From Parvicella sp. (GTDB taxonomy: Bacteria > Bacteroidota > Bacteroidia > Flavobacteriales_D > Parvicellaceae), in contig JBFHGR010000002.1 in assembly GCA_041583015.1 (NCBI GenBank), positions 6,181-70,180 on the forward strand: DNA of 64,000 nucleotides, in the 5' to 3' direction. The notes beneath the pieces were generated by a model. That model saw nothing but the letters and a program-made list of their open reading frames with translations. It made no database searches and was not told where the DNA came from. A program made the position numbers and the translations under genes. The first letter of the stretch is position 1, and every line of letters begins with the position of its first letter. Shown here piece by piece: positions 32,378-50,752 of the stretch.

Positions 32378-35300
32378 TTAAACTAGTTCTCCCCCATTCT
32401 CTCCACTTCCAGGTCCAATGGTAATCACTTGATTTGCTACCTCAATCAACGCTGAATTATGTTCTATAAAAAGAACTGTATTTCCTCGCGCTACAATGGA
32501 TTGAAATAATTTTATTAAGGTTTGTATATCAAAATAGTGTAGTCCAATACTTGGTTCATCAAAAAGATATAAAGTAGTTCCTTTGCTCTTCTGCATTAAA
32601 GAAGCCGCTAACTTCAACCGTTGAGTTTCTCCACCAGATAAGGTATTTCCTGCTTGTCCAAGAATTAAATGTCCAACCCCTACATCTTTCAATATATTTA
32701 ATTTCTCAATAATTGAACTTGAATCAAAAAACACTAATGCTTCCTGCACAGTCATTTGCAATATATCTCCAATAGAGCAATCCTTAATTTTGCATTTGAG
32801 TACAGTTCTGTTATACCTCATGCCTTTACAACTATCGCAAGTCAACCAAATATCACTCATAAAGTCCATACTCGTTTTTACTTTCCCTAGTCCAGCACAA
32901 ATTTTACATTTACCATTTTTACTTTGGTAAGAGAAATCCGCTTTTTTTAGTCCCGCTTTTTTAGCACCTTCTGTTTTGGAGAATTCAAGTTTTAGTTGAT
33001 CTATAATTCCGGTGTACGTAACAGGTGTACTTGTTCTACTTTGCATTAATGGAGTTTGATCCATCAATAAAACTTCTTCAAATTGATCCATTCCAAGCAC
33101 CTCATCACAAAATACATTTCTATTCTTTTGCCAAGATTTGAACAACACCTCTCTTATTAAACTAGTTTTTCCACTTCCAGAAACACCAGTTACTGCTATT
33201 ATTTGTTGAGCATAAAAATCTACATCAATATGCTTAAGGTTATTAGCAAATGCTCCCCTAACACCAAATTTTGCTCCCCGTTTTATTTGTTTTTTTTCAA
33301 TGGCATTTTTCCTATTGTTCAGCAATCGGTATGTCACTGAATCCACTACAGAAGAAATATTTTCTAGTTTTCCTTGATAGATTATCTCCCCTCCTAGCCT
33401 GCCTGCACCTGGTCCCATTTCAATAACATAATCTGCCGTTTGAATAAACAATGGGTCATGCTCTACTACTATGACAGTATTGCCATTGGCAACAATACGT
33501 TTCAATAAATTGGACAAAACAATAACTTGTGCACTATCTAAACCAATGGTTGGTTCATCTAACACATAAATCACTCCGTACAAATGTGTGGACAATTGCC
33601 CTGCCAATGTTACTCGCTGACGCTCTCCACCAGACAAAGAATTTACTGCTCTATCCAAGGTTAAATAGCCTAATCCTAGATCTATAATAATCTGTAATGA
33701 TTTTTTGACACCAGGTAAAACAACTTGACTAATGGCTAAAATTACATCATCAACCTTCGCTTCAATACCCTTTATTAATTCCAAACAAGATGTAATACTC
33801 AGTCGTGTTAATTCGTGAATATTTTTCTCTAAAAAAGTCGTATTTAACAACGCTGGTTTTAATCTACTTCCTCGACACTCTGTACATTCCACCTCATGCA
33901 ATAGTTCTTCTACATTCTTGGTGTTCTTATTATGCAAAGTTCGTTGATACTCATCGTCAATATAATTACACAATCCTAACCATTTGGCCTGTAATTTTTG
34001 TACTCCTGTTCTTGATTTAGTAACATATTCCCAAGAAACATCCCACAAAGTTTCTCCTGTTCCATACAGAATAACATCTTTTATTTCTTTATCTAATTGA
34101 CGCCATGGACGGTCCAAATTCCAATTGTTATTTTGAGCCGCTTCTCGCAATGTTGCCATAAACTGTCCTTTTGAATCTGCATAATATCCTATTGTTTTAT
34201 TGGTAGATACCGCTCCTTCAAAAATGGATTTATCTTGATTTACAATAATAGCATCTGGATTGCATTTACGCTTTACACCAAGCCCTTCGCATGCTGGACA
34301 TGCACCTAAATGATGATTGAAAGAAAAATGCTGCGCAGTGTAATTCTCTCCTTCGTGTTGGGATATCCTTGAATACAATAATCTAAAAGAATCATAAACA
34401 CCTGATAATGTTCCTACCGTAGAACGTGTAGATGGCGCACCTCCTTTTCGATTGATCCCTATAGCAGGTCCCAAGCCTGAAAATGATGCTATTTCTGCCG
34501 AACTATTTTGCTGTAGGAAACTTCTATTATAAGTGGATAATGACTCCGTAAACCTAGCATTTGCTTCCGAAAAAATAGTTTCATACACTAATGAGGTCTT
34601 ACCACTTCCAGATAACCCAGTCACCACTGTCAATTGATTTTTAGGAATGCGAACATTGACATTTTTTAACCCATGTGTTGTAATACCATTCAATTCTATT
34701 TGGTTTGCAATGTTTGGAATTGTTGCGGATTGTTTAATCTCTTTTCTAACTTTATGAAATTCATTTCTTGGAAATCCTTGATAAGTAACCTTCCCTCCTT
34801 CCTTTCCACACCTAGGACCTAATTCTATATGCCAATCACTATGTTGGATAATCAATTCATCTTGCTCGATACAAACAATTGTATTTCCTTTCTTTTTTAT
34901 AGTATCAAATAACATCAATAAGGAATCGATGTCACTTGCATGTAGTCCGATACTTGGTTCTGTAATCACATAAAGTGTATCACCTGTATCTTTCTTTTGC
35001 AACTGGTTGGCAATTTTAATTCTCTGTGCCTCACCACCAGAAAGCGTGGTAGAAGACTGACCTAAAGTTAAATACCCTAATCCTATTTCTTGCAATAAAT
35101 GAAGTCCAAGTATTATCTTTTTATGATTCGCAAAAATCAATGCTGCTTCATTAATTGATAATTTGTAAATATCTGCTATTGATAAACTATTAAATTTTAC
35201 TTCCAGTGTTTCCTTATTGAATCTATCACCATTACAATCGCCACAAACTAATTCTACATTACCCAAAAAGTGCATGCCAATTTGAATTTTACCTGCTCCT

Positions 35301-37144
35301 TGGCAAGTTTCACAACGCCCTCCTTTGTTATTAAATGAAAAGCGAGATTTAGTGTATTTCCTTTTCTTAGATTCCGGTAAACTGACAAATAAATCTCGAA
35401 TGTGATCTGACAAGCCCAAATATGTAGCAGGGTTACTCCTTGGTGTTTTCCCTATAGGAGAATGATCGATAAAAATCAATTTATTAATCGCTTCTAAATT
35501 CTCATGAGCGTTCAATTTTACTTGGCCTTCAACTTCTATTCCCAATTGCCGCTGTACTGCCCTTAACAATGTTTCTTTCACTAAACTAGTTTTCCCCACT
35601 CCCGACCGTCCACTTACTACATTAAGTTTACCTAATTGGAATGCAACATCTATATTTTTTAAATTCCTTTCCGAACAACCTATCAATCTAATGAACTTTC
35701 CATTGAATCTCTTTGGAATGAAAGTATCTTCATTCATTTTCTGAACTGCCCGGAAAGTAGGACTTACGTCAAATAATTGCTTGCTTTGAATGAACTTTTC
35801 AAATGCTCCATTAAAGATTAATTCACCTCCATTAATTCCTGCTTGAGGTCCAATCTCTATGATATGATCTGCACTTGAAATAGTTTCCAAATCATGCTCC
35901 ACCACAATAACTGTGTTTCCTTTCTTTACTAATTCCTTGAAGTGATGAATTAACTTTACATTCTCTTCTGAATTTAACCCGATACTTGGCTCGTCAAAAA
36001 CATACAACACATCACTCAATGGCACTAAAATTTGATTAGCCACTCTGATTCGCTGAATTTCACTTGCACTAAGTGATTTGGCAGAACGATCTATTGTTAA
36101 ATGACCTATCCCCAAATCCTCCAACAACGCAATTTGTCTGGTTATTTTAGTTACAATTTCTTTGGCTACAGTTTTCCATTTATGATCCTCAATCCATGCT
36201 CTTAATTCATTTAGTTCCATGGTTACCAACTCGGCAATGTTCTTACCCTGAACAGTAACACTCAATGCATCATCGTTTAGTCTTGTACCATTGCATGATT
36301 GGCAAGTAACCGCATGTACATATTTTAAAATATTGGCATTTCTATCTCTTCTCAAAATATCAGACATGATAGGTATCATCCCTTTATAAAACCCTTCCTC
36401 TCTAGGTTTGGCTTTAATACCTGTCCATTTCAATCGAGATTCTAGACTGTGCTTTCCAAATGGCACTTTGATCTTCTCACTACCATATAAAATTACATTT
36501 TGCTGTGCAGTGCTGAGTTCATTCCAAGGAATATTCACATTAAAACCCTCTGCTTCGCAAACTTGATTGAGCACATCGATGGTCACTTGCGAATACATGA
36601 TATATCCGTTAGGCAAGGTTGGCGCCAACGCCCCTTCACGAATAGACCTTCTTGGATAGATGATTAATTTATTCAAATCTATTTGCTCTTCTTTACCGAT
36701 GCCATTGCATCGCTTGCACTTACCTGTCTCAGCATTGAAAGAAAATAATCCTCGCGTTAGTTGAATTTCCTTTTTTGTAGTGCCTGCTCTAGCAAATAAC
36801 AAACGTAATAAGTCGTATATATCAGACATGGTTCCCACAGTAGATCGAGCATGCATTCCTGATGTACCTTGACCAATGGCTATAACAGGAGACAACCCTT
36901 CAATATTATCCACATCAGGGCGATTTAATTTACCTAAAAACTGACGTGCAAAAGATGGTAATGTTTCAAAATACCTACGCTGTCCTTCTTTGGCTATGAT
37001 ATCAAACACTAAACTAGATTTTCCGGATCCTGAAATCCCAGTCACCACAATAAACTTGTTGTGAGGAATTTTTAATGATATATTTTTTAAATTATTGGTT
37101 TTTGCCCCTTGAATTATAATTTCTGAACGTTTGCTTGATGTCAT
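32378..37144 (-). CDS. Tandem-duplicated UvrA-like ABC ATPase (four NBDs)
   Basis: Four Walker A motifs ([32 protein letters not shown]), four signature/Walker B regions and four CxxC...CxxC zinc modules over 1588 aa. Confidence 0.92.
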
Positions 37145-39903: not shown

Positions 39904-40001
39904 TGTTGAAATCTACTCACTTATGAGTATAGTTTACTTTAAAGTATTTTCATATTTTTGAACTATTGAAATACATTCAATCTCGTTCAATAATTTTGCA
40001 A

Positions 40002-42974
40002 ATGATTTACAAATCAATATTAATACTGTTTTCAGTATTTTTTGGATATGTTGCTAATTCTCAATCCAAATACACCTCTTTTGAAAAGTCAAAAAATGGT
40101 TATGATACCATTAGTAAAAATGGAAAATTATTGATGAAAGGAGATATTTTTAAAAATGAAAATTTTGAATATCTCAACTCAAATGAAGCATACATTAAAA
40201 ATTATCACAAAAGATATACTTATCTGAATGGGCAGTATGAAAACGTAACTAATCATTTATCTACCGTTTTAGCAGACGACACTAGTTCTAGAAGTTACAA
40301 AGGTTATTATTTGGACATTCATCCAAGTTATCTTTCAGATAGAGTTGTTCCAATAAGTTATCTTTCTAAAGGCGTTATTACCAACAGGGATTGGAATAAA
40401 TTTAAAGCATATGTAAGAGATTCAATTGCGTTGAGAATACTAGCAAGTGACCAATCTCCTGAAGATTACCAAATACCATCTTACATTAGAGACAAAAATG
40501 GTCTATATGAAGCAGATATTTATGAATGGCCTCTAAACTGGAATGCCAAAATTGATTTTAATAAAACACCTACTAATTTTCTATATCCTTCATTGGCGCA
40601 ATTAAACTATTCTCCACATCAGCGATTTAGATCAAAAATAGAAACAGACGCTAGAAAACTTCAATATATTTATACGGAAGTCCAAAACAAGACCATTCGT
40701 GAGAATATGCTTAAAGATGTATTGGAAATGCATGAATTTTCCGACACAATACGTGCTAGAAACGTACTCTGGGACGATTACTACCGAGATTATTCAAGTA
40801 CGCATTATATACCATTATATGTAGATTCTTTATTGTGGAAATCGCAAAGTAAAAATCCTCATCATGGAGATATTGCAGACCAATTGATTAGCCAATATGG
40901 CAGTTATGAGCGATTTTTGGACTCGCCTGTAGTGGGAATTACCAGTATGCAAGTCAAAGCTTATTTACATTGGCTACAAACCGAACATCAAAAACAGTTA
41001 AATAAAAACAAAAAGTGGTACTATGTAGAATATGCATTGCCAACTCCACTGGAACTTGAAGGAATAGACCCCATTAACAACAAAATTACCATCCCTGCTT
41101 TCGACTTATCTCCTTGGACCATAACTAATGCAGACTACAAAGAGTTTTTAGACTATACCATTGATTCATTAATAATTACAATTGCCGGCCAACAACTTGG
41201 TCCAGATGGTTTACTTATTCCTACATTGGATGACTACTTGAACGAAACAGATATTTATCAGTGGGTAATCAACTGGAAGAATCTCAAAAACGTACATAAT
41301 GACATTCGCTATTATGACTTGATAAAAAATGAAGGATTATTTTATCCTGAATATTTAGCTGATTCAACTAAACTGTTTGATTTTGATTACAGATACATCA
41401 AATACATTCATTACCAATATAATTTTCAATCTGCTGCACCATTAGGGCAACTGGAAGAACAAGATCATTTTGGGTATACAGAATGTGATAAACACATTTT
41501 GGAAACAAAAAATATTACTCAAAATTATTGGGAAGATTATAAAAATGGCAAAAACATGATACTAAGTAGTCCCAATAATACATGTCAAAATGCTGATGTA
41601 AGAAGTCATGAGGATCGTTCACAATTTATTGAAGAATTCAGAACAAATATTTACCCAGGTGTAATTTGTTATTCGGATCGCATCTGTGAAAGCTACTATG
41701 AAACACATCCTGAATTAGGAGATACTTGTTGTAAAATGGATGATTACGAAAATCAAAGATTACCAGAATATGATTTTACTAGTTTTCCAAATAATGCCAT
41801 CACCAATATAACCTATAGACAAGCACTTGCATTTTATAATTGGAAGCAAAAACATAAGGGTTACGTTACGAAACATGACAACGCAATCATAGCTAATTAC
41901 ATTCCTGCTGAAAAAGAATGGATTGAAATTCAAAACGGAAAGAAAATAACTCACTCTGAAGAATCTTTTCAATACACTACTCCACTAGCCAAGTATGTAG
42001 TAAGGTTTTATCCAAGAAATAGCAAAAGTACTGTTCCAGGACTCCCAAAGATTTCTCAATATGCTAGACATCCTGGTGCTCAATTTAGCGCTAGCAAAAC
42101 TGAAAGAAAAAAATTCTTGAAACTGATAAATGCTGATTTATCAGAGTATAATGAAGCAAATGATATTCAAATTATCAGAAATAAGACTTCTAAACTATGG
42201 GGGCTTTACACCAATGACAACGAAGTTAGAGAATTGGTTCCACAATCATTTCATAGCATTGAGTTTTTAAAAGATACTTTACAACATTTTGCTGAATGCT
42301 ATAATTCCAAAGGTCAAAAAACGTGTTTTATTCCAAATAAAGTATACGAAAACATGGAAACTAATTTGTTTTTTGATGAAATAAACTATCGCAAAACCAA
42401 TAATGGAAATTTTCAAGTTTTAGCTCAGAAAAGCAGCAATTGGGGTGTTTTAAATCCGCATAATGGTCAATTGATTTACGCATGTGATGCTGCTGATATA
42501 AAAGATATTCCTGTATTTTCTATAGATGGATTAAACTACTTGCAAAGCTATATTAACAAAAGGAAATCACAAGGTGATATTTCATTTATGCCCGATGGCA
42601 ATGGGGATGGCGTTTTTTATGCAAAAAACAAACACAATAAATGGGGATTGTATCAAATGGACCAAGCAATTATTCCTGCTCAATATGACAAAATTGAAAT
42701 CATAGGTTTTAATCCGAATTTTACATTAGTATGGAACAATAATAAAGTAGGTGTTTGGAGCGGAATATTCTCTGCAGGAAAAGAAAGTGTTCCCTGTCTA
42801 TATGATGGTGCTAAAAGGATAAGACTTTCTGGATATTATTATCTCGCTGCACAAAAAAATGGTAAATGGGGTTATGTAGATTGGTACAACGGTGATATTT
42901 TACTTGATTTTAAATATGACACTTTTGAGAGTTTACCTTATTGTAAGGATTATAAAAGTTCATTTTATAAATAA
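40002..42974 (+). CDS. Exported protein with two tandem truncated GldK/FGE-like cores and C-terminal WG-type repeats
   Basis: Sec signal peptide without lipobox; ITNRDWNKFKAYVRDSI...PVVGITSMQVKAYLHW...LPTPLE and ITNADYKEFLDYTIDSL...ITNITYRQALAFYNW...IPAEKEW; later KLWG/NWG/KWG/KWGY repeats; ATG at 40002. Confidence 0.7.
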   Translation: MIYKSILILFSVFFGYVANSQSKYTSFEKSKNGYDTISKNGKLLMKGDIFKNENFEYLNSNEAYIKNYHKRYTYLNGQYENVTNHLSTVLADDTSSRSYKGYYLDIHPSYLSDRVVPISYLSKGVITNRDWNKFKAYVRDSIALRILASDQSPEDYQIPSYIRDKNGLYEADIYEWPLNWNAKIDFNKTPTNFLYPSLAQLNYSPHQRFRSKIETDARKLQYIYTEVQNKTIRENMLKDVLEMHEFSDTIRARNVLWDDYYRDYSSTHYIPLYVDSLLWKSQSKNPHHGDIADQLISQYGSYERFLDSPVVGITSMQVKAYLHWLQTEHQKQLNKNKKWYYVEYALPTPLELEGIDPINNKITIPAFDLSPWTITNADYKEFLDYTIDSLIITIAGQQLGPDGLLIPTLDDYLNETDIYQWVINWKNLKNVHNDIRYYDLIKNEGLFYPEYLADSTKLFDFDYRYIKYIHYQYNFQSAAPLGQLEEQDHFGYTECDKHILETKNITQNYWEDYKNGKNMILSSPNNTCQNADVRSHEDRSQFIEEFRTNIYPGVICYSDRICESYYETHPELGDTCCKMDDYENQRLPEYDFTSFPNNAITNITYRQALAFYNWKQKHKGYVTKHDNAIIANYIPAEKEWIEIQNGKKITHSEESFQYTTPLAKYVVRFYPRNSKSTVPGLPKISQYARHPGAQFSASKTERKKFLKLINADLSEYNEANDIQIIRNKTSKLWGLYTNDNEVRELVPQSFHSIEFLKDTLQHFAECYNSKGQKTCFIPNKVYENMETNLFFDEINYRKTNNGNFQVLAQKSSNWGVLNPHNGQLIYACDAADIKDIPVFSIDGLNYLQSYINKRKSQGDISFMPDGNGDGVFYAKNKHNKWGLYQMDQAIIPAQYDKIEIIGFNPNFTLVWNNNKVGVWSGIFSAGKESVPCLYDGAKRIRLSGYYYLAAQKNGKWGYVDWYNGDILLDFKYDTFESLPYCKDYKSSFYK

Positions 42975-42977
42975 ATT

Positions 42978-43688
42978 ATGAAAATACTAATTCTATTACT
43001 CATCTTTACCACAGCGACTAACTATGCTCAGTATTTTCAAACTGGTGCTAGTTGGAATATGGTGGTAAAAGACAATTTCACAATAAACCAACCTTCTTTC
43101 ACCAACTCAGAAGGACTAAACTCTAGAATAGAAGGTGTTGAACATATCTCAGAGTTAAAAGGTTGGGATATAAAAATTCTTGGTTTGTTTAACTATAAGC
43201 GATTTTTCTACAAGTTTGATTTTAATATTTTTCAAGGATTTGAAGAGTACGAAGTAACCCATATCACAGAAAAAATTAGAGAAAGTTGGCCGCAAGATGT
43301 TAAATACATAGATACAGTGACTTTAGAACTTAATAATGAATATGTTTCTGTAGGCAATGAATTGATGTTTAAACTATCAAAACAACCCAACTCATTGTAC
43401 CTTTCTTTTCAGCACATAATCAAATTTAATAATTACCATGCGGGAAGTGTTGCAGAAGATACTGAAATAGAAAAATGGCTTACCAATGTAAAACGGGACG
43501 TTAGATTCAATTTTGGAGCAGGTTATATTAGAACTAATGTCATGATCTTCGCAAAATATACACCATCTTTTAGACTTCAAAAACTTAGCAGAGGACTTAC
43601 ATTCTCTTACGTAGAAATAGGTTTTGCATTTATGGGGAGACCTCAACCATTTTTCAAGAAAAAATCTATTTATAAACCTAAACTGTAA
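42978..43688 (+). CDS. Probable small outer-membrane beta-barrel protein
   Basis: Signal peptide; aromatic alternating strands (FNFGAGY, IFAKY, FSYVEIGFAF). Confidence 0.55.
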   Translation: MKILILLLIFTTATNYAQYFQTGASWNMVVKDNFTINQPSFTNSEGLNSRIEGVEHISELKGWDIKILGLFNYKRFFYKFDFNIFQGFEEYEVTHITEKIRESWPQDVKYIDTVTLELNNEYVSVGNELMFKLSKQPNSLYLSFQHIIKFNNYHAGSVAEDTEIEKWLTNVKRDVRFNFGAGYIRTNVMIFAKYTPSFRLQKLSRGLTFSYVEIGFAFMGRPQPFFKKKSIYKPKL

Positions 43689-43689
43689 T

Positions 43690-46599
43690 ATGAGAACCTT
43701 AATAATCATTTTATTTTTATGGGTCGGGCAGATTTTACATTGCCAGCATGTGGAATTCACTATTCAAAAAGCACACAAATCAAGCGTGTCCTCCATAGAC
43801 TTTATTGAAGGTGATAAACTCCTTACTACAGACACAGATAGTACTACTGTGTTATGGGATATAAATACCGAGAAAGTATTTCACGTAGGAAAAAAAGGTG
43901 AATCTTCTTACAACACTTTAAATAACGAAAATTCAAAGTTTGGTATTGTAAAAATTGAGGATAACTCAATTCAACTTAGAAATAGCCAATTTCACGCAGA
44001 GATAATAAATGATTTCAGGCTTTTCATGAACACTTCACAAGGAAAAATAGTGTTTTGGACCAAAGAACAAAATGGAAATAAAATTTTAGTAATAGAATAC
44101 TCAGAAAAACATAACCTATTTGTTCTTGGTTTGGATAATGGAGAAATCATCTTTTTGAATGCAAAAAATGGTAGATTAATAAAACGGATGACCATTCATA
44201 GTGATATGATTACCACTATGAGAATTGACAAGAATCAAGACCTGATTGCCACTGCTTCGAATGATAGATCCTTTTGCCTAATCAACTTAGCGACCAAAAA
44301 ATTGGAAAAAAGATTGTTTGGAACAAGTTACCATTTTAAACATTTGCAATTTTCTGAAGATGGCAACAAACTTTTGTTTTCGGATGAAACAGGAAAATTG
44401 AGCATACTCAACTTTAGTAATAATGTCCCAGAATTAACTAGTTATACCAAGAACACTTCCAATTTGATGTACTTTGCTCCAACTCAAAATGGAATTACTG
44501 GTTGTACTGACAATAATAAAGTAATAACCTATGATTTAGAAAATGAAAAGTTGAACAAATCCAAATGGATAAAAAAGCAGTATCCCTACACCACAATGTA
44601 CAGGGTCAAAAAAAGTGCTGACTTTACATTAAACACTAAATACTCACGAGTTACCAAAGGAGTTTTTTCATCAAGTAGAAAATACTTCGCTGTGCTACAC
44701 CATCTGCACTACCCAAAAGAAGATGATTATTTTTGGAGAATATCGTTAATTAATGCTGAAACACATCATGTAACCAATATCAAGGCAGGTTATTCCGCTT
44801 TTGATTTTTACAAAGACCATTTAATATATTTAAACTATGATTATAAGTTTGCGGAAGCGGAAAATAAAAATTTAGACAAATTAACACTGCCATCTGGAAT
44901 AATGGAGAAATTTGCGGTTTTGAACGATAGTATAATACTCTACTTAAAAGATTATGAGTTCTTCAGTTATAATCCAGAAAGTCAAAAAACATCCAAGGTA
45001 ACTTGTGAAAGTATACCAAAAGGAAAAATCTCTTTTAAACACAACTTGTTTTTCGCACAAGAAGATGACGCATTAAAAATCTATACATTTCAAAATGATT
45101 CATTGCGTTTAATAAATACAATCAATGAAGACGCTATTCAATTTGATATACACAAGAACCAAAATACCATTGCAATAATTACGGAAAATGGTTTGATTAA
45201 ATTTTATAGATTGGATAAAATTGATCAGCCAGTTTCATTTGCTACTTCATTTTACGATGACTTTGCCTTCTTTGATAAAGACCAGCATTATTTTATTCCC
45301 AAAAGTAAACTAGAATTTATCGGAATCAACTACAACAATAATTATGTTTTCCCTTATCAGTTTGACAAATATTTTAATAGGCCAGACATTGTGCTTGGAA
45401 AGACTGGCCTAATCTCCGAATCATTTGAACAATTACTAGCCAAAAGTATTTCGAAGAGAACATTGACCACAGAAAATTTGACTCTTCCAAATTTTGAAGA
45501 TATTCCTGTAGTTTCTATTCTTGAAAAAATTGAAAATCAAGATTCGATTTCACTTAAACTACGCATAAAAAGTACAAATAAGGAAGGTAAAATAATTTGC
45601 AAGATTAATGATGTTGCTTCATTTCAACAGGAAGTTACTGTTGAAGATTCAGAGATAAGTATTCAGGTTCCAAAAGTAAGTGGTGTCAACAAATACGAGG
45701 TAAGTTTTGCTACGAATGATAATATAGAAAGTGTAAAACAATTTTTTGAATTTGAATCCCAATTAAATAATTCCAAACCTAATCTTTATGTTGTTTCAAT
45801 TGGTGTTTCCCAATATGAGCAAAAAGAGTTTAATTTAGTTTATGCCAATAAAGATGCTAATGATTTTGATCAATGTATTAAAGAGCAATCTAAAAACAAA
45901 TATGAAAACATCTATTCGTTAGTAATTACTGATAAAGATGCTACAAGAAGTAATATTCAAACTGGTATAAAAGATTTCCTGGCAAAGAGTAGTATAAACG
46001 ATGTTGTAATACTCTTTATGGCAGGGCATGGCTTGTTAGACAAGGATCTGAACTACTATTTTGGCAATAGTGACATTGATTTCTTATCTCCGGAAACCAA
46101 TGGAATTTCATTTGATGAAATTGAACAGATGCTAACAAGTATTAATTCCAATAAAAAACTTCTTATTATGGATACATGTCATAGTGGTGAAGTAGATAAG
46201 GAAGAAACCACTGAGGATGATGAGTTACTTTCACAAGATAATTCCGATATAGTTTTTAGGAAAGGAACGAAGCAATACAAGACTACATCAAAGCAAACTA
46301 CATTGGAATTATCCAAATCCATTTTCTTTGACATGAACAATACTTCTGGCGCCAACGTCATAGCAAGTGCTTCAGGTAATGAATTCGCCATGGAAACCAA
46401 TGAATTTGAGAATGGAATATTCACCTACGCATTAATGCAAAGTCTCACCGATAAAAAAGCCGATACCAACAAAGATGGTCAACTATGGCTAGACGAAATT
46501 AGAAATTACACCTATAATCAAGTTGTCATTATTTCTGATGGCAAACAACATCCAACTGTAAGGTCTGAGAATTTATTGACTAATTTTAGAATAAAATAA
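43690..46599 (+). CDS. Exported WD40-repeat protein with C-terminal caspase-like (C14) peptidase
   Basis: Signal peptide; WD repeats (AHKSSVSSIDF...LWD; HSDMITTM...ATASNDRS); caspase dyad motifs MAGHG and MDTCHSG; SLTDKKADTNKDG...QHP; ATG at 43690. Confidence 0.88.
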   Translation: MRTLIIILFLWVGQILHCQHVEFTIQKAHKSSVSSIDFIEGDKLLTTDTDSTTVLWDINTEKVFHVGKKGESSYNTLNNENSKFGIVKIEDNSIQLRNSQFHAEIINDFRLFMNTSQGKIVFWTKEQNGNKILVIEYSEKHNLFVLGLDNGEIIFLNAKNGRLIKRMTIHSDMITTMRIDKNQDLIATASNDRSFCLINLATKKLEKRLFGTSYHFKHLQFSEDGNKLLFSDETGKLSILNFSNNVPELTSYTKNTSNLMYFAPTQNGITGCTDNNKVITYDLENEKLNKSKWIKKQYPYTTMYRVKKSADFTLNTKYSRVTKGVFSSSRKYFAVLHHLHYPKEDDYFWRISLINAETHHVTNIKAGYSAFDFYKDHLIYLNYDYKFAEAENKNLDKLTLPSGIMEKFAVLNDSIILYLKDYEFFSYNPESQKTSKVTCESIPKGKISFKHNLFFAQEDDALKIYTFQNDSLRLINTINEDAIQFDIHKNQNTIAIITENGLIKFYRLDKIDQPVSFATSFYDDFAFFDKDQHYFIPKSKLEFIGINYNNNYVFPYQFDKYFNRPDIVLGKTGLISESFEQLLAKSISKRTLTTENLTLPNFEDIPVVSILEKIENQDSISLKLRIKSTNKEGKIICKINDVASFQQEVTVEDSEISIQVPKVSGVNKYEVSFATNDNIESVKQFFEFESQLNNSKPNLYVVSIGVSQYEQKEFNLVYANKDANDFDQCIKEQSKNKYENIYSLVITDKDATRSNIQTGIKDFLAKSSINDVVILFMAGHGLLDKDLNYYFGNSDIDFLSPETNGISFDEIEQMLTSINSNKKLLIMDTCHSGEVDKEETTEDDELLSQDNSDIVFRKGTKQYKTTSKQTTLELSKSIFFDMNNTSGANVIASASGNEFAMETNEFENGIFTYALMQSLTDKKADTNKDGQLWLDEIRNYTYNQVVIISDGKQHPTVRSENLLTNFRIK

Positions 46600-46623: not shown

Positions 46624-47049
46624 ATGGACATCCTAGCACTCTACAACCAACATAACAACTTCGGTAGGTTATTAAACATGACTTACGAGGTTATTGAACC
46701 AGGAAAAGTCTCCTACCATCTTAAAGTTACTTCAGATTTATTGGCTACACCAATAGCGGCTCACGGTGGAGCAATTGCTGGATTTATGGATGCTATTGTT
46801 GGTGTTGCGGCTTTAAGCGCTGTAGCGCCTTTAAACAAAGTGGTAAGCACCATTGAGTTTAAAATCAATTACGTGCAACCAGCATTGCTTAATGATGATC
46901 TTAAAGGAATAGGTGAAGTCTTAAAGCTAGGAAATAGAATATTGACAGTGAGAGGTGATATTTACAACCAGAAAAATGAATTGGTTGCAACAAGTTTGGC
47001 TACCTTGAATGCTTACCCTATTGAGAAGAGTGGGATGTTGAATCAGTAG
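46624..47049 (+). CDS. PaaI-family hotdog thioesterase
   Basis: AHGGAIAGFMD, STIEFKINYVQPA, LGNRI. Confidence 0.9.
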   Translation: MDILALYNQHNNFGRLLNMTYEVIEPGKVSYHLKVTSDLLATPIAAHGGAIAGFMDAIVGVAALSAVAPLNKVVSTIEFKINYVQPALLNDDLKGIGEVLKLGNRILTVRGDIYNQKNELVATSLATLNAYPIEKSGMLNQ

Positions 47050-47737
47050 CAGCCAATTCTGCGGTTAAAGCATTAAAATTCTCTTGAGCTAATATGTAGT
47101 CTTTTTGGACCATCAAAGCGGCATTAAACATTCCTAATGCATTCTCTTTTTCCATTTTTTCGTTATAAATGAACCCTAAAAGATTGTATGCTGCTGCTCT
47201 GTATGCAACTTTTTGCACTCCATTCCCTCTATATTCCGCGTATTCTTCCGTAAGACTTTTAGGCGATAAGATAATTTCATTTAGCAACTCCTCACTTGCT
47301 GATAGATCCATCAACTGAATATAGTTATATGCCAATTCATATTTTAAAGAAACGCTATCATCATGAAAACTAAGCAACTCCTCACCGTACAAAATAATAT
47401 CTTCATTTTTTTTCAATGCTTTGGCAGCATTATAAGCCAACCCCAATGTAGGTTCACAGACTTTAAAAGCTAAGGCTTTTGATGCGCATTTTTGCACAGA
47501 TGAAAAATCATTAGTCAAATAATATAATTTAGCCAAAGTATCATAATAAGTATGATTATTACTGTCTAAAGCAATAATGTTATATACAGCAGACTTTGCA
47601 ATTTGGTAATCATTAACCGTCATGGCATTATTATACTTACTCCACTCCTGATTTATTTTCGCAAGCGACTCCTCATTTCCATTGCTACAACTTACAGCTA
47701 TTAATAGAAGAACGATAAAATACAATGTTTGCTTCAT
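47018..47737 (-). CDS. TPR-repeat lipoprotein
   Basis: Lipobox AVSC after MKQTLYFIVLLL (ATG at 47737); TPR-like helices ending AAYNLLGFIY...A..MFNAAL. Confidence 0.75.
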   Translation of the reverse strand: MKQTLYFIVLLLIAVSCSNGNEESLAKINQEWSKYNNAMTVNDYQIAKSAVYNIIALDSNNHTYYDTLAKLYYLTNDFSSVQKCASKALAFKVCEPTLGLAYNAAKALKKNEDIILYGEELLSFHDDSVSLKYELAYNYIQLMDLSASEELLNEIILSPKSLTEEYAEYRGNGVQKVAYRAAAYNLLGFIYNEKMEKENALGMFNAALMVQKDYILAQENFNALTAELAATDSTSHSSQ

Positions 47738-47765
47738 ATGATACAAATATATTACTTTTGAACCA

Positions 47766-49106
47766 ATGAATTCCATATACCAAAAACTTTTCTCTTCTAT
47801 CTCCGGAGTACAACTAGCAGTATTTAGGTTTTTATTTGGCTTAGTAATTTTTTGGGAGGCAGGTAGATTAATATTTTGGAACGATGCTGCTTATTCTAAA
47901 TATATAAATACAGTTTTTCATTTTAAGTACCCATTCTTTGAATGGGTGAAACAAGCACCTGATTCAATAATGTATGTAATCATTGCTGCGGTTGCTTGCT
48001 TGGCAATCCTTTTTTCTGTAGGTTTATTTCATAAAATTGTTTCTCCCTTATTATTTTTAGGCTACACCTATCTTGAGCTTATTGATATTAGTTACTGGAA
48101 TAATCACTATTATTTTTACGCACTAATTCTGTTTCTTTTCATTTTTATACGCCCTACTTTCGTTATTTCTTACCATAAAGACAAAGTGAAAATAAGAAAT
48201 GCAAAATGGTGGGAATTAAACATTCTTAAGTTTTTGGTTGTTCTGGTTTTATTTTATGGTGGAATAGCAAAATTAGTCAATCCAGATTGGATGAATGGTT
48301 CTGCTACAACAGCACTTATAAGTTTAGAATTGAGTAAAAAAGATATTTTTCTTTCTGAATCATCAATCTCTTTTTATTCATTAATAACTAAGTGGTTTGG
48401 GATAGGCATTGATCTGGTTTCTGGTTTTTTATTATTACATAGAAAGACCATTGTTTTCGGATTAGTATTTTTAATACCGTTTAACTTATTAAATTCCTAT
48501 TTGTTCAATATTGGATCATTTCCTTATGCAATGCTTTCAACCTTATTTTTGTTTATACCCAATAATTGGTATAGACTTATATCAAAAACTAAAAAATTTG
48601 AGATTGTTGAGAATCATTCAAATGAAAAAAAGATTGGGATAATAACACTTTTAACCTTATTTATAGTAATACAAATTTCACTTCCATTAAGGCATTTTTT
48701 TATAGAAGGGAATTCTTTTTGGACAGGAGAAGGCAAACTTTATGCTTGGCATATGATGTCTGGTGTAACTCATGCTGAAACAAATAAATTTGTAGTCATT
48801 GCAAAAGCTCCATTCAAAAATAACCTGGAAAAACATACTCTTGATTTGGGACTTTATTTAAATGAAAAGCAAATAAAGGCACTTTCAAAATTTCCATATT
48901 TAGCCTTCCAATTTGCTCAGTTTGTAAAGTCTGAAATGCAGTATGAGGGATATAGTGACATAAAAGTTTATGCTAATATGAACATGGGGCGAAATGGCAG
49001 TGAAATGAAACCAGTAATCTCTCCATTTACCAATTTATTGGACGTCAAAATATCTTATACATCGCACAATAAATGGATTCTTTTATATTTAGATGAAGGT
49101 TACTAA
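47766..49106 (+). CDS. HTTM-domain / vitamin K-dependent gamma-carboxylase-like membrane protein
   Basis: LAVFRFLFG, FHFKYPFFEWV, YWNNHYY, GGIAKL..PDW, FNIGSFPY, PLRH, EGKLYAWHMM. Confidence 0.88.
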   Translation: MNSIYQKLFSSISGVQLAVFRFLFGLVIFWEAGRLIFWNDAAYSKYINTVFHFKYPFFEWVKQAPDSIMYVIIAAVACLAILFSVGLFHKIVSPLLFLGYTYLELIDISYWNNHYYFYALILFLFIFIRPTFVISYHKDKVKIRNAKWWELNILKFLVVLVLFYGGIAKLVNPDWMNGSATTALISLELSKKDIFLSESSISFYSLITKWFGIGIDLVSGFLLLHRKTIVFGLVFLIPFNLLNSYLFNIGSFPYAMLSTLFLFIPNNWYRLISKTKKFEIVENHSNEKKIGIITLLTLFIVIQISLPLRHFFIEGNSFWTGEGKLYAWHMMSGVTHAETNKFVVIAKAPFKNNLEKHTLDLGLYLNEKQIKALSKFPYLAFQFAQFVKSEMQYEGYSDIKVYANMNMGRNGSEMKPVISPFTNLLDVKISYTSHNKWILLYLDEGY

Positions 49107-50752
49107 TTGTTTTCTTCGATTAACTCTGGCTTACTCTGTCCATTAATCAATTGCTCAAATTGACTTGAAAGTAATTCAATATCTAAATCTGACATATTGG
49201 TGTTTGAAATATCTAATACTTTCAATTTACAACTTTCATTCAAAAGTAGTTTTGATATTGGGTTATTCGACAGTTCAACTTCCTCCAATTTTGAAAAATT
49301 GGACAAATTAATTGACGTCATTGTATTGTTGTCTAGAAATAGTTCCAATAATGCACTATTCTTATTCAGTGTAGGAAAATTAACTATTCTACAAGATTGA
49401 CATTCAATTTTTTGAATAGAGTCTAAATAAAATAACTCTTCTTCCAATATTGATATTGGATTATGACTTAAGTCTATTTTTTGAATTGCTGTAGAGTTAA
49501 ATATAGACATCGGAACGTTCTGAATATTATTCTCGCCAATATCAATCTTTATTAATGAATCCAATTTAAAATCAATACCTTTTTCACTTAATTGATTATT
49601 TCTTAACTCTAAAACTTTAAGTGATTCTAATTCATTTTTGCTAACTTTAAATGTTAAAAGTGCATTTCCATTTAAAACTAACATTTGCAACTTGTTCAAA
49701 CAACTGTTAGAAAACTCTATCTTTTCAATTTTGTTTTCAATTGCAAAAAATTTACGTAGATTACATAAACCATTGACTTCATCAATATTTGTAATATTAT
49801 TGAATGAAACATCCAAAATTTGCAATGCAGAATAATCAACCAATGAAATAGGCAATGTCGAAATTTTATTATCCCCTATTTCATAAACTTCTATAGTTGT
49901 CGGATTTAATATTATCGGGAATTTCATCAAGTTGTTCCCAGATATTTTTATAGTTTTTAACTGTGATAAATTTGAAATAAATTGCATTTCATTAATTTCA
50001 TTACCTGATACATTCAAATAATTTAAATTCTCACAACTACTTAAGGTGGTTGGTAATTCGCTAAAATTATTGTTTTTTAAGTTAATAATTTCTAGTTGCT
50101 TATTTAGTCCTATACTACTCGGTAAAATTTCTAGATTATTATTCCCGCATTTAAATACCTTTAGTTTCTTCGATCTAAATAACTTATCACTTAAGAATCT
50201 TAACCTATTATTTTGAATTTCTAAAGTTTCAAGTCTTGATAAAGCGTTTGATAATTCTATAAACTTTAAATTATTGGATGCTAAATCCAACAATCTTAAA
50301 TTTGAAAAATTTGAAAAATCACAAGCGATTGAATCAATTGAGTTGTCTCTTAAATTTATTTCTTCTAAATTGATTAATTCTTCCAGAAATTTGGGAATTA
50401 AAGAGATTTTATTATCATGGATTACTAATGACTTTAAGTTTTTTAATTTTATAATTGAATCAGGTATTGCCTCCAATTGAGCATCAATAATCACCAATGT
50501 AGTTAAGTTAGGAGACGAAGCCAAAATATCTATTGTCTCATTCCAATTATTTTGAAATGACAATGTTACTTTATTCAAATTTTGAAACCTTGTTAAATTA
50601 TTTTGTAGAGAAGTATATTTCTTTGGAACGATTAATTCCTTCACTTCTGAAGAATCTTCAAATAACTCACCCAAAACAAATGAATTAACAACCTGAGAGT
50701 AATAATTGAATGAAGTAAAAATAAACAAGAAATAAGAAACAAATCTAATCAT
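49103..50752 (-). CDS. Exported leucine-rich repeat protein
   Basis: Signal peptide; roughly 18-20 LxxLxLxxNxL repeats (e.g. LKNLKSLVIHDNKI, LEEINLRDNSI). Confidence 0.9.
   Translation of the reverse strand: MIRFVSYFLFIFTSFNYYSQVVNSFVLGELFEDSSEVKELIVPKKYTSLQNNLTRFQNLNKVTLSFQNNWNETIDILASSPNLTTLVIIDAQLEAIPDSIIKLKNLKSLVIHDNKISLIPKFLEELINLEEINLRDNSIDSIACDFSNFSNLRLLDLASNNLKFIELSNALSRLETLEIQNNRLRFLSDKLFRSKKLKVFKCGNNNLEILPSSIGLNKQLEIINLKNNNFSELPTTLSSCENLNYLNVSGNEINEMQFISNLSQLKTIKISGNNLMKFPIILNPTTIEVYEIGDNKISTLPISLVDYSALQILDVSFNNITNIDEVNGLCNLRKFFAIENKIEKIEFSNSCLNKLQMLVLNGNALLTFKVSKNELESLKVLELRNNQLSEKGIDFKLDSLIKIDIGENNIQNVPMSIFNSTAIQKIDLSHNPISILEEELFYLDSIQKIECQSCRIVNFPTLNKNSALLELFLDNNTMTSINLSNFSKLEEVELSNNPISKLLLNESCKLKVLDISNTNMSDLDIELLSSQFEQLINGQSKPELIEENN

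Follow-up and report, generated by a model that had tools for sequence, protein, structure and literature searches.

Which of its neighbors, if any, does an exported bacterial caspase work with? This question is raised by a 64,000-nt stretch of DNA from Parvicella sp. (GenBank assembly GCA_041583015.1, contig JBFHGR010000002.1, positions 6,181 to 70,180 of the forward strand), referred to here as the window, in which three closely spaced genes, g1, g2 and g3, encode a GldK-like protein with WG motifs, a predicted outer-membrane (OM) β-barrel, and an exported caspase with WD40 propellers. An earlier note on this DNA had read the three as one extracytoplasmic sensor-protease module, in which ligand binding by the propellers activates a caspase that may cleave a partner, perhaps the GldK-like protein. 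As judged by sequence comparison, the conserved unit is the pair g2 plus g3, and the trio is lineage-specific. The unit of analysis is thereby moved from three genes to two, with one catalytic Cys and one tail of 16 residues. The reading that we prefer, at somewhat less than even odds (about 45%), is that g2 and g3 form a conserved envelope pair, in which a periplasmic caspase, probably specific for Arg/Lys, would be docked to, regulated by, or cleaving the tail of the barrel. The genes and their putative promoter are as follows.

40002-42974, + strand: g1, 990 aa, exported, probable lineage-specific accessory; ATG at 40002, in an open reading frame (ORF) that opens at TTG 39966
42978-43688, + strand: g2, 236 aa, predicted small OM β-barrel, conserved partner of the caspase
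43690-46599, + strand: g3, 969 aa, exported; ATG at 43690, within an ORF opening at 43624
39953-39960 and 39991-39998, + strand: putative promoter for g1-g2-g3, two TAnnTTTG matches in the 98-nt gap 5' of g1

The stop and start codons read from the DNA separate g1 from g2 by 3 nt (TAA-ATT-ATG) and g2 from g3 by 1 nt (TAA-T-ATG). Together with the ORF list, they bear out the coordinates and gaps that the earlier note had given, and g2 and g3 are translationally coupled in the window. The same note had assigned signal peptides to all three products, and inspection of the sequences agrees: each N-terminus begins with a basic n-region and continues with a hydrophobic core, the residue at −1 being small and that at +1 Gln. 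Gln at +1 is the "Q-rule" pattern of signal peptidase I (SPI) substrates in Bacteroidetes (PMC5837995), which the three predicted signal peptides fit. That of g1, MIYKSILILFSVFFGYVANS followed by Gln (...VANS/QSK), has no lipobox Cys.

How far does this arrangement extend beyond the window? A word-index search with g2 returned only g2 itself, and an exhaustive HMMER search found three relatives among 1.84 billion representatives, with 37, 30, and 28% identity. A scan of the GTDB genomes with the g2 alignment, which covered species representatives, the window's own genome not being among them, gave one locus, in a Flavobacteriales metagenome-assembled genome, identical to one of these three (L008). 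In all three cases a full-length g3 orthologue follows directly, at −4 to +11 nt; its identity to g3 is 30-35% across about 950 residues, and in L014 it is present as two overlapping ORFs. The adjacency of g2 and g3 is thus found in four of four g2-family lineages, the window included, a pairing to which the earlier note had given no separate attention. Moreover, among the nearest neighbors of the caspase domain, the type of partner tracks relatedness, and the two closest relatives of the window caspase are two others with g2-family partners. That partner type follows the caspase relationships speaks for long-term co-inheritance and against chance adjacency.

The first gene of the trio behaves differently. 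No g1 homologue lies upstream of the three g2 relatives, as far as the sequence is readable, and in L008 and L014 the unit begins with the g2 homologue. In the third locus, L007, the end of an ORF (28 aa) lies 5' of the g2 homologue; it was considered as a g1-like C-terminus and discarded, as it has no similarity to one. All three loci carry the Bacteroidetes −7 consensus just 5' of the g2 homologue. No g1 relative was found among 98 loci with g2 or g3 relatives, scanning metagenomes with the g1 alignment gave no match, and the sole g1 homologue among 5.8 billion clusters (P0003, 34% identity) lacks the WG region. Beside this homologue, in locus L001, no g2 or g3 relative could be demonstrated; its 3' side holds an unrelated exported protein of 193 aa and then noncoding DNA to the contig end. 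The 193-aa protein was rejected as a hidden g2 relative, with an hhalign probability of 0.15% and no gene after it. A single g1 homologue without demonstrable g2 or g3 neighbors, together with g2/g3 loci free of g1, means that the trio is not conserved.

These data bear on the proposal that the three genes form a conserved unit in which the propeller-activated exported caspase cleaves g1. Within this genome co-transcription of the three is likely, given the 3- and 1-nt gaps and a sole promoter-like region 5' of g1: on the + strand between 38527 and 44728, the only matches to the −7 consensus TAnnTTTG, counted as consensus matches, are the two in front of g1, and none lies directly 5' of g2 or g3. 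(A scan for sigma-70 promoters and terminators is uninformative for this phylum.) A precedent for a functional link between the two protein types also exists: among the domains fused to prokaryotic metacaspases, FGE-sulfatase ranks fifth in frequency (PMC3501461). However, the g1-free loci, the lone g1 homologue, the empty metagenome scan, and the g2 homologue opening the unit in L008 and L014 all argue the other way, and nothing points to g1 as a substrate of the caspase. We regard the proposal as quite improbable. The trio fails the criterion of co-occurrence in other genomes that the earlier note had set, and the cleavage of g1, which that note had suggested, is not supported. What stands is the reasonable reading of an extracytoplasmic sensor-protease module in which an exported caspase is coupled to a probable barrel.

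On sequence grounds, g1 itself is best described as a lineage-specific accessory, part of the operon in this genome alone. The protein matches the NCBIfam GldK/PorK profile (TIGR03525) with an E value of 1.7e-29 and 103.4 bits against a cutoff of 350, covering profile positions 70-265 of 408, and its residues 262-354 match PorK/GldK chains of the PDB (E 7e-5). Matches to Pfam FGE-sulfatase (E 0.016) and WG_beta_rep (E 0.001) are weak. An internal duplication (E 1e-6) divides the protein into two tandem truncated GldK-like modules, and four WG motifs follow toward the C-terminus, at 731, 813, 879, and 955. A true GldK/PorK was considered and rejected because of the score below cutoff, the missing lipoprotein Cys, and the absence of adjacent gldL, gldM, or gldN (porL, porM, porN in the other nomenclature), the rest of the window not having been specifically scanned for these genes.

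In L001 (419-5444), the g1 homologue lies downstream of genes for a TPR protein of 1087 aa and for a protein of 586 aa whose C-terminus, ...GGFTFRF, is typical of OM barrels. The GldK-like family to which g1 belongs may therefore have an envelope context of its own, unrelated to caspases.

What kind of protein is the conserved partner, g2? No Pfam, NCBIfam, or PADLOC family matches it at E ≤ 0.1, save one spurious 12-bit match. Its parts are as follows:

aa 1-17, nt 42978-43028, + strand: g2 signal peptide, MKILILLLIFTTATNYA followed by Gln (...NYA/Q)
aa ~18-220, + strand: predicted g2 barrel, from the AlphaFold model and fold matches
aa 221-236, nt ~43638-43685, + strand: basic C-terminal tail of g2, GRPQPFFKKKSIYKPKL, conserved in the family alignment

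The AlphaFold model, built on a four-sequence alignment, is all-β with long antiparallel strands (pLDDT 69, pTM 0.64), and the top 50 Foldseek matches in the PDB are all OM barrels, among them CarO, FapF, Pla/OmpT, OmpX, Ail, PagL, NanC, and OpcA. The sequence has 17% aromatic residues, no Cys, and alternating hydrophobicity in several of the strands. Thus, g2 is likely an OM β-barrel, and the description of it as a probable barrel in the earlier note holds, although the fold matches score weakly. About 16 residues extend beyond the last predicted strand of this moderate-confidence model; if g2 takes the form of an OM barrel, this basic tail would face the periplasm. None of the tails in the four-sequence alignment contains Cys, which excludes a disulfide tether.

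The domain layout of the second member of the pair, g3, is better defined:

aa 1-18, + strand: g3 signal peptide, MRTLIIILFLWVGQILHC followed by Gln (...LHC/Q)
aa ~20-530, nt 43747-45279, + strand: propeller region, from WD40 families and double-propeller fold matches
aa ~538-600, + strand: helical linker, from the AlphaFold model
aa 607-690, nt 45508-45759, + strand: Ig-like domain, a modelled β-sandwich with pLDDT ~78-87
aa ~699-969, nt 45784-46596, + strand: Peptidase_C14 domain, from the Pfam match and the model
46027-46029, + strand: codon of the catalytic His780, in MAGHG (GHG at 779-781), from the AtMC4 alignment
46177-46179, + strand: codon of the catalytic Cys830, in DTCHSG (828-833), from the AtMC4 alignment

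The caspase domain matches Pfam Peptidase_C14 (PF00656) over residues 704-966 with 58.9 bits against a cutoff of 21.4, and the protein matches many WD40 propeller families. H780 and C830 align with the catalytic His and Cys of Arabidopsis metacaspase-4 (AtMC4; 6w8s), and D722 and D828 align with two of its Asp residues; all four positions are invariant in 14 g3 relatives. The two aspartates of AtMC4 are, we take it, residues of the basic-specific S1 pocket of metacaspases. With an intact dyad and both putative S1 aspartates, g3 probably cuts after Arg or Lys. The AlphaFold model has a pLDDT of 62 overall and a pTM of 0.48; its confident parts are the blades at 130-250 and 405-530, the linker (538-600), the Ig-like domain (607-690), and the caspase domain (699-960), inside which a disordered inter-subunit loop containing Arg and Lys is modelled at 838-875. 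The best fold matches are double-propeller proteins, including β'-COP, Apaf-1, and the periplasmic sensor BT4663. Hence the match to Peptidase_C14, the alignment with AtMC4, and the modelled Ig sandwich agree with the earlier description of an exported WD40-Ig-caspase with an intact dyad.

Where would this protease reside? The Cys at the end of its signal peptide is not a lipobox residue, because the orthologues have ...VSS/Q, ...LNA/Q, and ...VFS/Q at this place. Neither Pfam and NCBIfam profiles nor the model show a type IX secretion system (T9SS) C-terminal domain, whether Por_Secre_tail or type-B, and the protein ends with the caspase domain. With no lipobox and no such domain found, g3 would stay in the periplasm.

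The same results weigh on a different proposal, namely that g2 is an OM carrier or anchor that exposes g3 at the cell surface, where the propellers would attach to external polymers or to proteins of prey, and the caspase would serve as a protease in nutrition or predation. Marine Flavobacteriia do rely on surface hydrolases. The arrangement can be likened to T9SS type-B cargo with cognate PorP/SprF carriers, or to the attachment complexes PorU/PorV and PorZ/PorQ, and a GldK-like gene lies in the same operon. OM-barrel carriers beside cargo genes are typical of Bacteroidota (PMC12635249), and a clan-CD protease, β-propellers, and OM barrels combine in the T9SS attachment complex (PMC12365241). 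However, g3 has no detectable T9SS C-terminal domain of either type, g2 matches none of the PorP/SprF, PorV, or PorG families, the barrel, at about 220 residues, is not large enough for the translocation of a folded protein of 105 kDa, and the g2 tail lacks the Cys of SprF and PorG. Surface display of this kind appears rather improbable.

Does the caspase depend on a barrel in other genomes? Scanning metagenomes with aligned g3-clade sequences yielded at least 267 relatives, from which 80 loci were retrieved. Most relatives are about 1,000 aa long with Q-rule signal peptides, and they have in common the C-terminal half (linker, Ig-like domain, and caspase) and differ in the propeller region. 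Neither tblastn nor hidden Markov models found g1 or g2 relatives in these 80 loci. The informative loci, nonredundant ones in which the gene is complete and the upstream sequence extends for at least 2 kb, numbered 47, and an exported β-rich protein of about 235-260 aa lies nearby in 19 of them, nearly always upstream and on the same strand.

Clustering of the neighboring genes shows these small proteins as recurrent partners on the upstream side, in translational coupling, and they fall into two families. Family B (exported, β-rich, about 253 aa) directly precedes the caspase at 2-11 nt in nine loci. Family D (exported, about 235-255 aa) is followed by a divergent von Willebrand factor A (vWA) lipoprotein of about 350 aa, whose best member matches Pfam VWA with an E value of 3.7e-7, and then by the caspase. 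With signal peptides removed, hhalign gives weak matches of family D to g2 (E 1e-4 over 160 columns) and to family B (E 7e-5). The tails of D and g2 are alike, both following the pattern "basic cluster-x-I/L-Y" (e.g., LLKKKIYYEN in D and FFKKKSIYKPKL in g2). A direct homology of g2 and family B was tried and rejected: an hhalign probability of 67% proved to come from the signal peptides, and once these are removed it is 2.9%, which leaves the weak bridge by way of family D. In two loci, L002 and L089, a downstream partner is a protein of about 605 aa with a weak match to Pfam OMP_b-brl_2, and that of L002 also weakly matches the family D profile. Other tightly linked neighbors are envelope proteins, e.g., PD40-OmpA, TPR, and Sel1 proteins.

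A plain housekeeping protease of the periplasm, next to which g2 would be an unrelated OM protein that shares the operon by chance, would fit the many g3 relatives without a partner and the housekeeping neighborhood of the window. It would leave unexplained the adjacency in four of four lineages, where only four g2 clusters exist world-wide and identity is about 30%, the agreement between partner type and caspase relatedness, and the analogous partners in 40% of the informative loci. This makes it highly improbable.

Several further features of the family loci may be recorded here. The recurrent three-gene form, with an exported β-protein of about 245 aa, then a divergent vWA lipoprotein of about 350 aa, and then a WD40-caspase, occurs in L020, L028, L040, L044, L068, L078, and L098, for example:

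L020 6255-11042: three-gene vWA form

The small proteins of these loci end in an acidic ...IYYE(E/D/N), and it is speculation that such tails serve as ligands of a metal-ion-dependent adhesion site (MIDAS). The ternary MoxR-vWA system (PMC7159879) was considered for the vWA-containing relatives and dismissed, since they have no MoxR or other NTPase and all of their components are exported. In many loci (L033, L044, L081, L093, and others, forming a cluster of 12) a second WD40-caspase paralogue lies directly downstream, sometimes with a 7-nt overlap, which indicates tandem expansion of the family. Locus L017 (1742-15129) holds a CHASE2-domain protein, an exported caspase of 1517 aa, a convergent TPR-caspase, and a TPR-CHAT protein, and constitutes a multi-caspase envelope or signaling island; a 248-aa protein upstream of its P0010 caspase was compared with g2 and rejected as a relative. 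In L014 (10765-13787), the g3 orthologue is split into ORFs of 155 and 863 aa that overlap in different frames, for which a frameshift, a pseudogene, and an assembly error are candidates; DDE transposases and a gene for a PemK toxin flank this locus.

How, then, might the pair work? In the preferred reading of a conserved envelope pair, g2 would be a small OM barrel of 8-10 strands, with its basic tail of about 16 residues facing the periplasm. g3 would be exported by the Sec pathway, cut by SPI, and retained in the periplasm, where its variable double propeller would serve as the ligand- or partner-binding part. The periplasmic tail of g2 may dock g3 beneath the outer membrane, at the propeller or at the active-site cleft, and a change in the outer membrane or the binding of a propeller ligand could then release or activate the caspase. 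Once active, g3 would cut targets in the envelope, among which may be the Lys-rich tail of g2. As for the role of the pair, envelope surveillance or defense seems the most likely, with surface proteolysis and housekeeping as further candidates.

A precedent for docking through a barrel tail is provided by PorG and SprF, OM barrels whose periplasmic C-terminal tails bind the FGE-fold proteins GldK/PorK (PMC12635249); there, a Cys motif of the tail is disulfide-linked to GldK/PorK (PMC12635249), and the FGE fold of PorK is a nonenzymatic docking hub (PMC12421860). If g1 and g2 fold as proposed, the likeness lies in an FGE-fold periplasmic protein encoded beside a small OM barrel (8-stranded) with a periplasmic C-terminal tail. 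This precedent makes g1 a plausible extra scaffold in the window lineage: with two noncatalytic GldK/PorK-like docking modules and WG repeats, it could be a periplasmic scaffold or binder that fills the accessory role taken elsewhere by the vWA lipoprotein. The differences are nevertheless considerable, as g1 is no lipoprotein, is built from two truncated modules and WG repeats, and falls far short of the GldK cutoff, while g2 has a Cys-free tail and no family match, and other lineages have g2 without any g1.

A number of points weigh against the envelope pair. The fold matches of g2 are weak (E ≥ 2e-3, TM-scores 0.2-0.45) and the confidence of its model is moderate, so that its strand number, for which 8-10 is proposed, and its topology are uncertain. 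Docking and cleavage of the tail are argued from its conservation, its charge, and the predicted specificity of g3. Homology of g2 to families B and D is not established by the profile comparisons. About 60% of the informative g3-family loci have no small partner, which means that the caspase can work without one. Ordinary chromosomal or housekeeping genes surround the trio, without defense-island context, and no gasdermin or other effector recognizable by Pfam occurs in g1, g2, or the flanking genes. Finally, a search for RNA runs containing the window sequence returned DNA metagenome runs only.

A further proposal is an envelope suicide or antiphage system with g2 as its effector, in which the sensing of an invader would lead the caspase to remove the basic tail or plug of g2 and thus to open a pore, transferring the logic of caspase and gasdermin to the outer membrane. 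In favor of it, the best NCBIfam match of the caspase is the EACC1-associated conflict type (caspase_w_EACC1, NF047832; E 1.5e-21, 76.9 bits against a cutoff of 140), the "caspase" model of PADLOC matches g3, the tail of g2 is rich in Lys, and specificity for basic residues is predicted for the protease. Variable propellers on a constant caspase, varying accessories (g1, vWA, and others), and tandem paralogues are typical of conflict systems (PMC7159879). However, both family matches are below cutoff or generic, the context is not that of a defense island, and a barrel with 8-10 strands is, as a rule, a closed anchor and not a pore. PADLOC gave no match on the trio besides the caspase of g3, and together with the Pfam analysis of the flanks, a serine hydrolase of the β-lactamase family and a thioesterase, this confirms the earlier remark that no gasdermin or obvious effector is adjacent. 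A suicide pore of this sort is therefore given only a small chance.

The closest conceptual relative of the g2-g3 pair is the EACC1-caspase system, a two-gene membrane conflict system described by Kaur, Burroughs, Iyer & Aravind in 2020 as System 4 (PMC7159879). In both, the gene 5' of that for a caspase-superfamily protein with variable domains encodes a small, constant membrane component, and the EACC1 membrane partner has been proposed as a sensor or activator (PMC7159879). The two systems differ in their parts: EACC1 is an inner-membrane domain with a single transmembrane helix, found mainly in actinobacteria, whereas g2 is all-β and a predicted OM barrel; the caspase of the EACC1 system is N-terminal and cytoplasmic or membrane-associated, whereas that of g3 is C-terminal and Sec-exported; and the NF047832 score of g3 is below the family cutoff (76.9 vs 140 bits).

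Other known systems share less with the pair. A survey of prokaryotic orthocaspases and metacaspases reported WD40 as the most common fused domain and possible N-terminal signal-peptide helices (Asplund-Samuelsson et al. 2012, PMC3501461). These proteins share with g3 the p20-type Peptidase_C14 domain, the His-Cys dyad, and, by alignment, the putative residues of the basic-P1 pocket, but most of those surveyed have an N-terminal caspase and are cytoplasmic (e.g., caspase-NACHT-WD40), unlike the exported g3 (PMC3501461). Apaf-1, acting with caspase-9, resembles g3 in using a double β-propeller as a ligand-sensing unit, and BT4663 has two periplasmic propellers and an Ig-like domain upstream of its output domain, the layout of g3. 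In contrast to these, g3 has neither a NOD/STAND ATPase nor a kinase output, and the resemblance is one of fold class only (TM-scores 0.12-0.29, with a model pTM of 0.48). For the bacterial gasdermin-protease systems, no gasdermin domain was found in g1, g2, or the flanks. As to family membership by sequence, g2 is in no described family, g3 is a member of Peptidase C14, and g1 is GldK-like but outside GldK.

In the literature that could be searched, we found nothing relevant on exported, periplasmic, or secreted bacterial caspases, and no account of an exported propeller-Ig-caspase paired with an OM barrel. To our knowledge, the bacterial caspase-like proteases studied so far, namely the gasdermin activators, CHAT/Craspase, and the cyanobacterial orthocaspases, are all cytoplasmic. 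The g3 family, with its at least 267 metagenome relatives, appears to be periplasmic in Bacteroidota, and a substantial fraction of it is genetically tied to a small OM protein. If the barrel is an anchor, sensor, or substrate, the pair would amount to a caspase pathway by which the condition of the outer membrane is read or altered, and, if true, it would matter for phage defense, predation, or the quality control of the envelope in abundant bacteria of marine and gut-related kinds. A broader version, which we consider doubtful, is that the exported double-propeller caspases of Bacteroidota, a divergent superfamily of OM barrels (g2, B, and D, each near 240 aa), and swappable periplasmic adaptors (the vWA lipoprotein or g1) make up a so far unrecognized NTPase-free system for envelope surveillance or cell death, in which an OM event is relayed through the barrel tail to the caspase. 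Such a system, if true, would be the extracytoplasmic counterpart of the apoptosome or of EACC1-type signaling.

The remaining observations concern the window as a whole, whose DNA has about 33% GC and occurs in a marine metagenome. At 32378-37144 on the − strand, a 1588-aa ORF contains two tandem UvrA-like units (NCBIfam UvrA, 1564 bits in four stretches) and is an unusually long, duplicated UvrA paralogue. A membrane protein resembling HTTM/vitamin-K-dependent γ-carboxylase is encoded at 47766-49106 on the + strand, and the start of its gene overlaps the 5' end of the divergent gene at 47018-47776 (− strand), which encodes an exported protein of 252 aa. After the HTTM gene, on the opposite strand, follows a gene for an exported leucine-rich-repeat protein of 549 aa (49103-50752, − strand).

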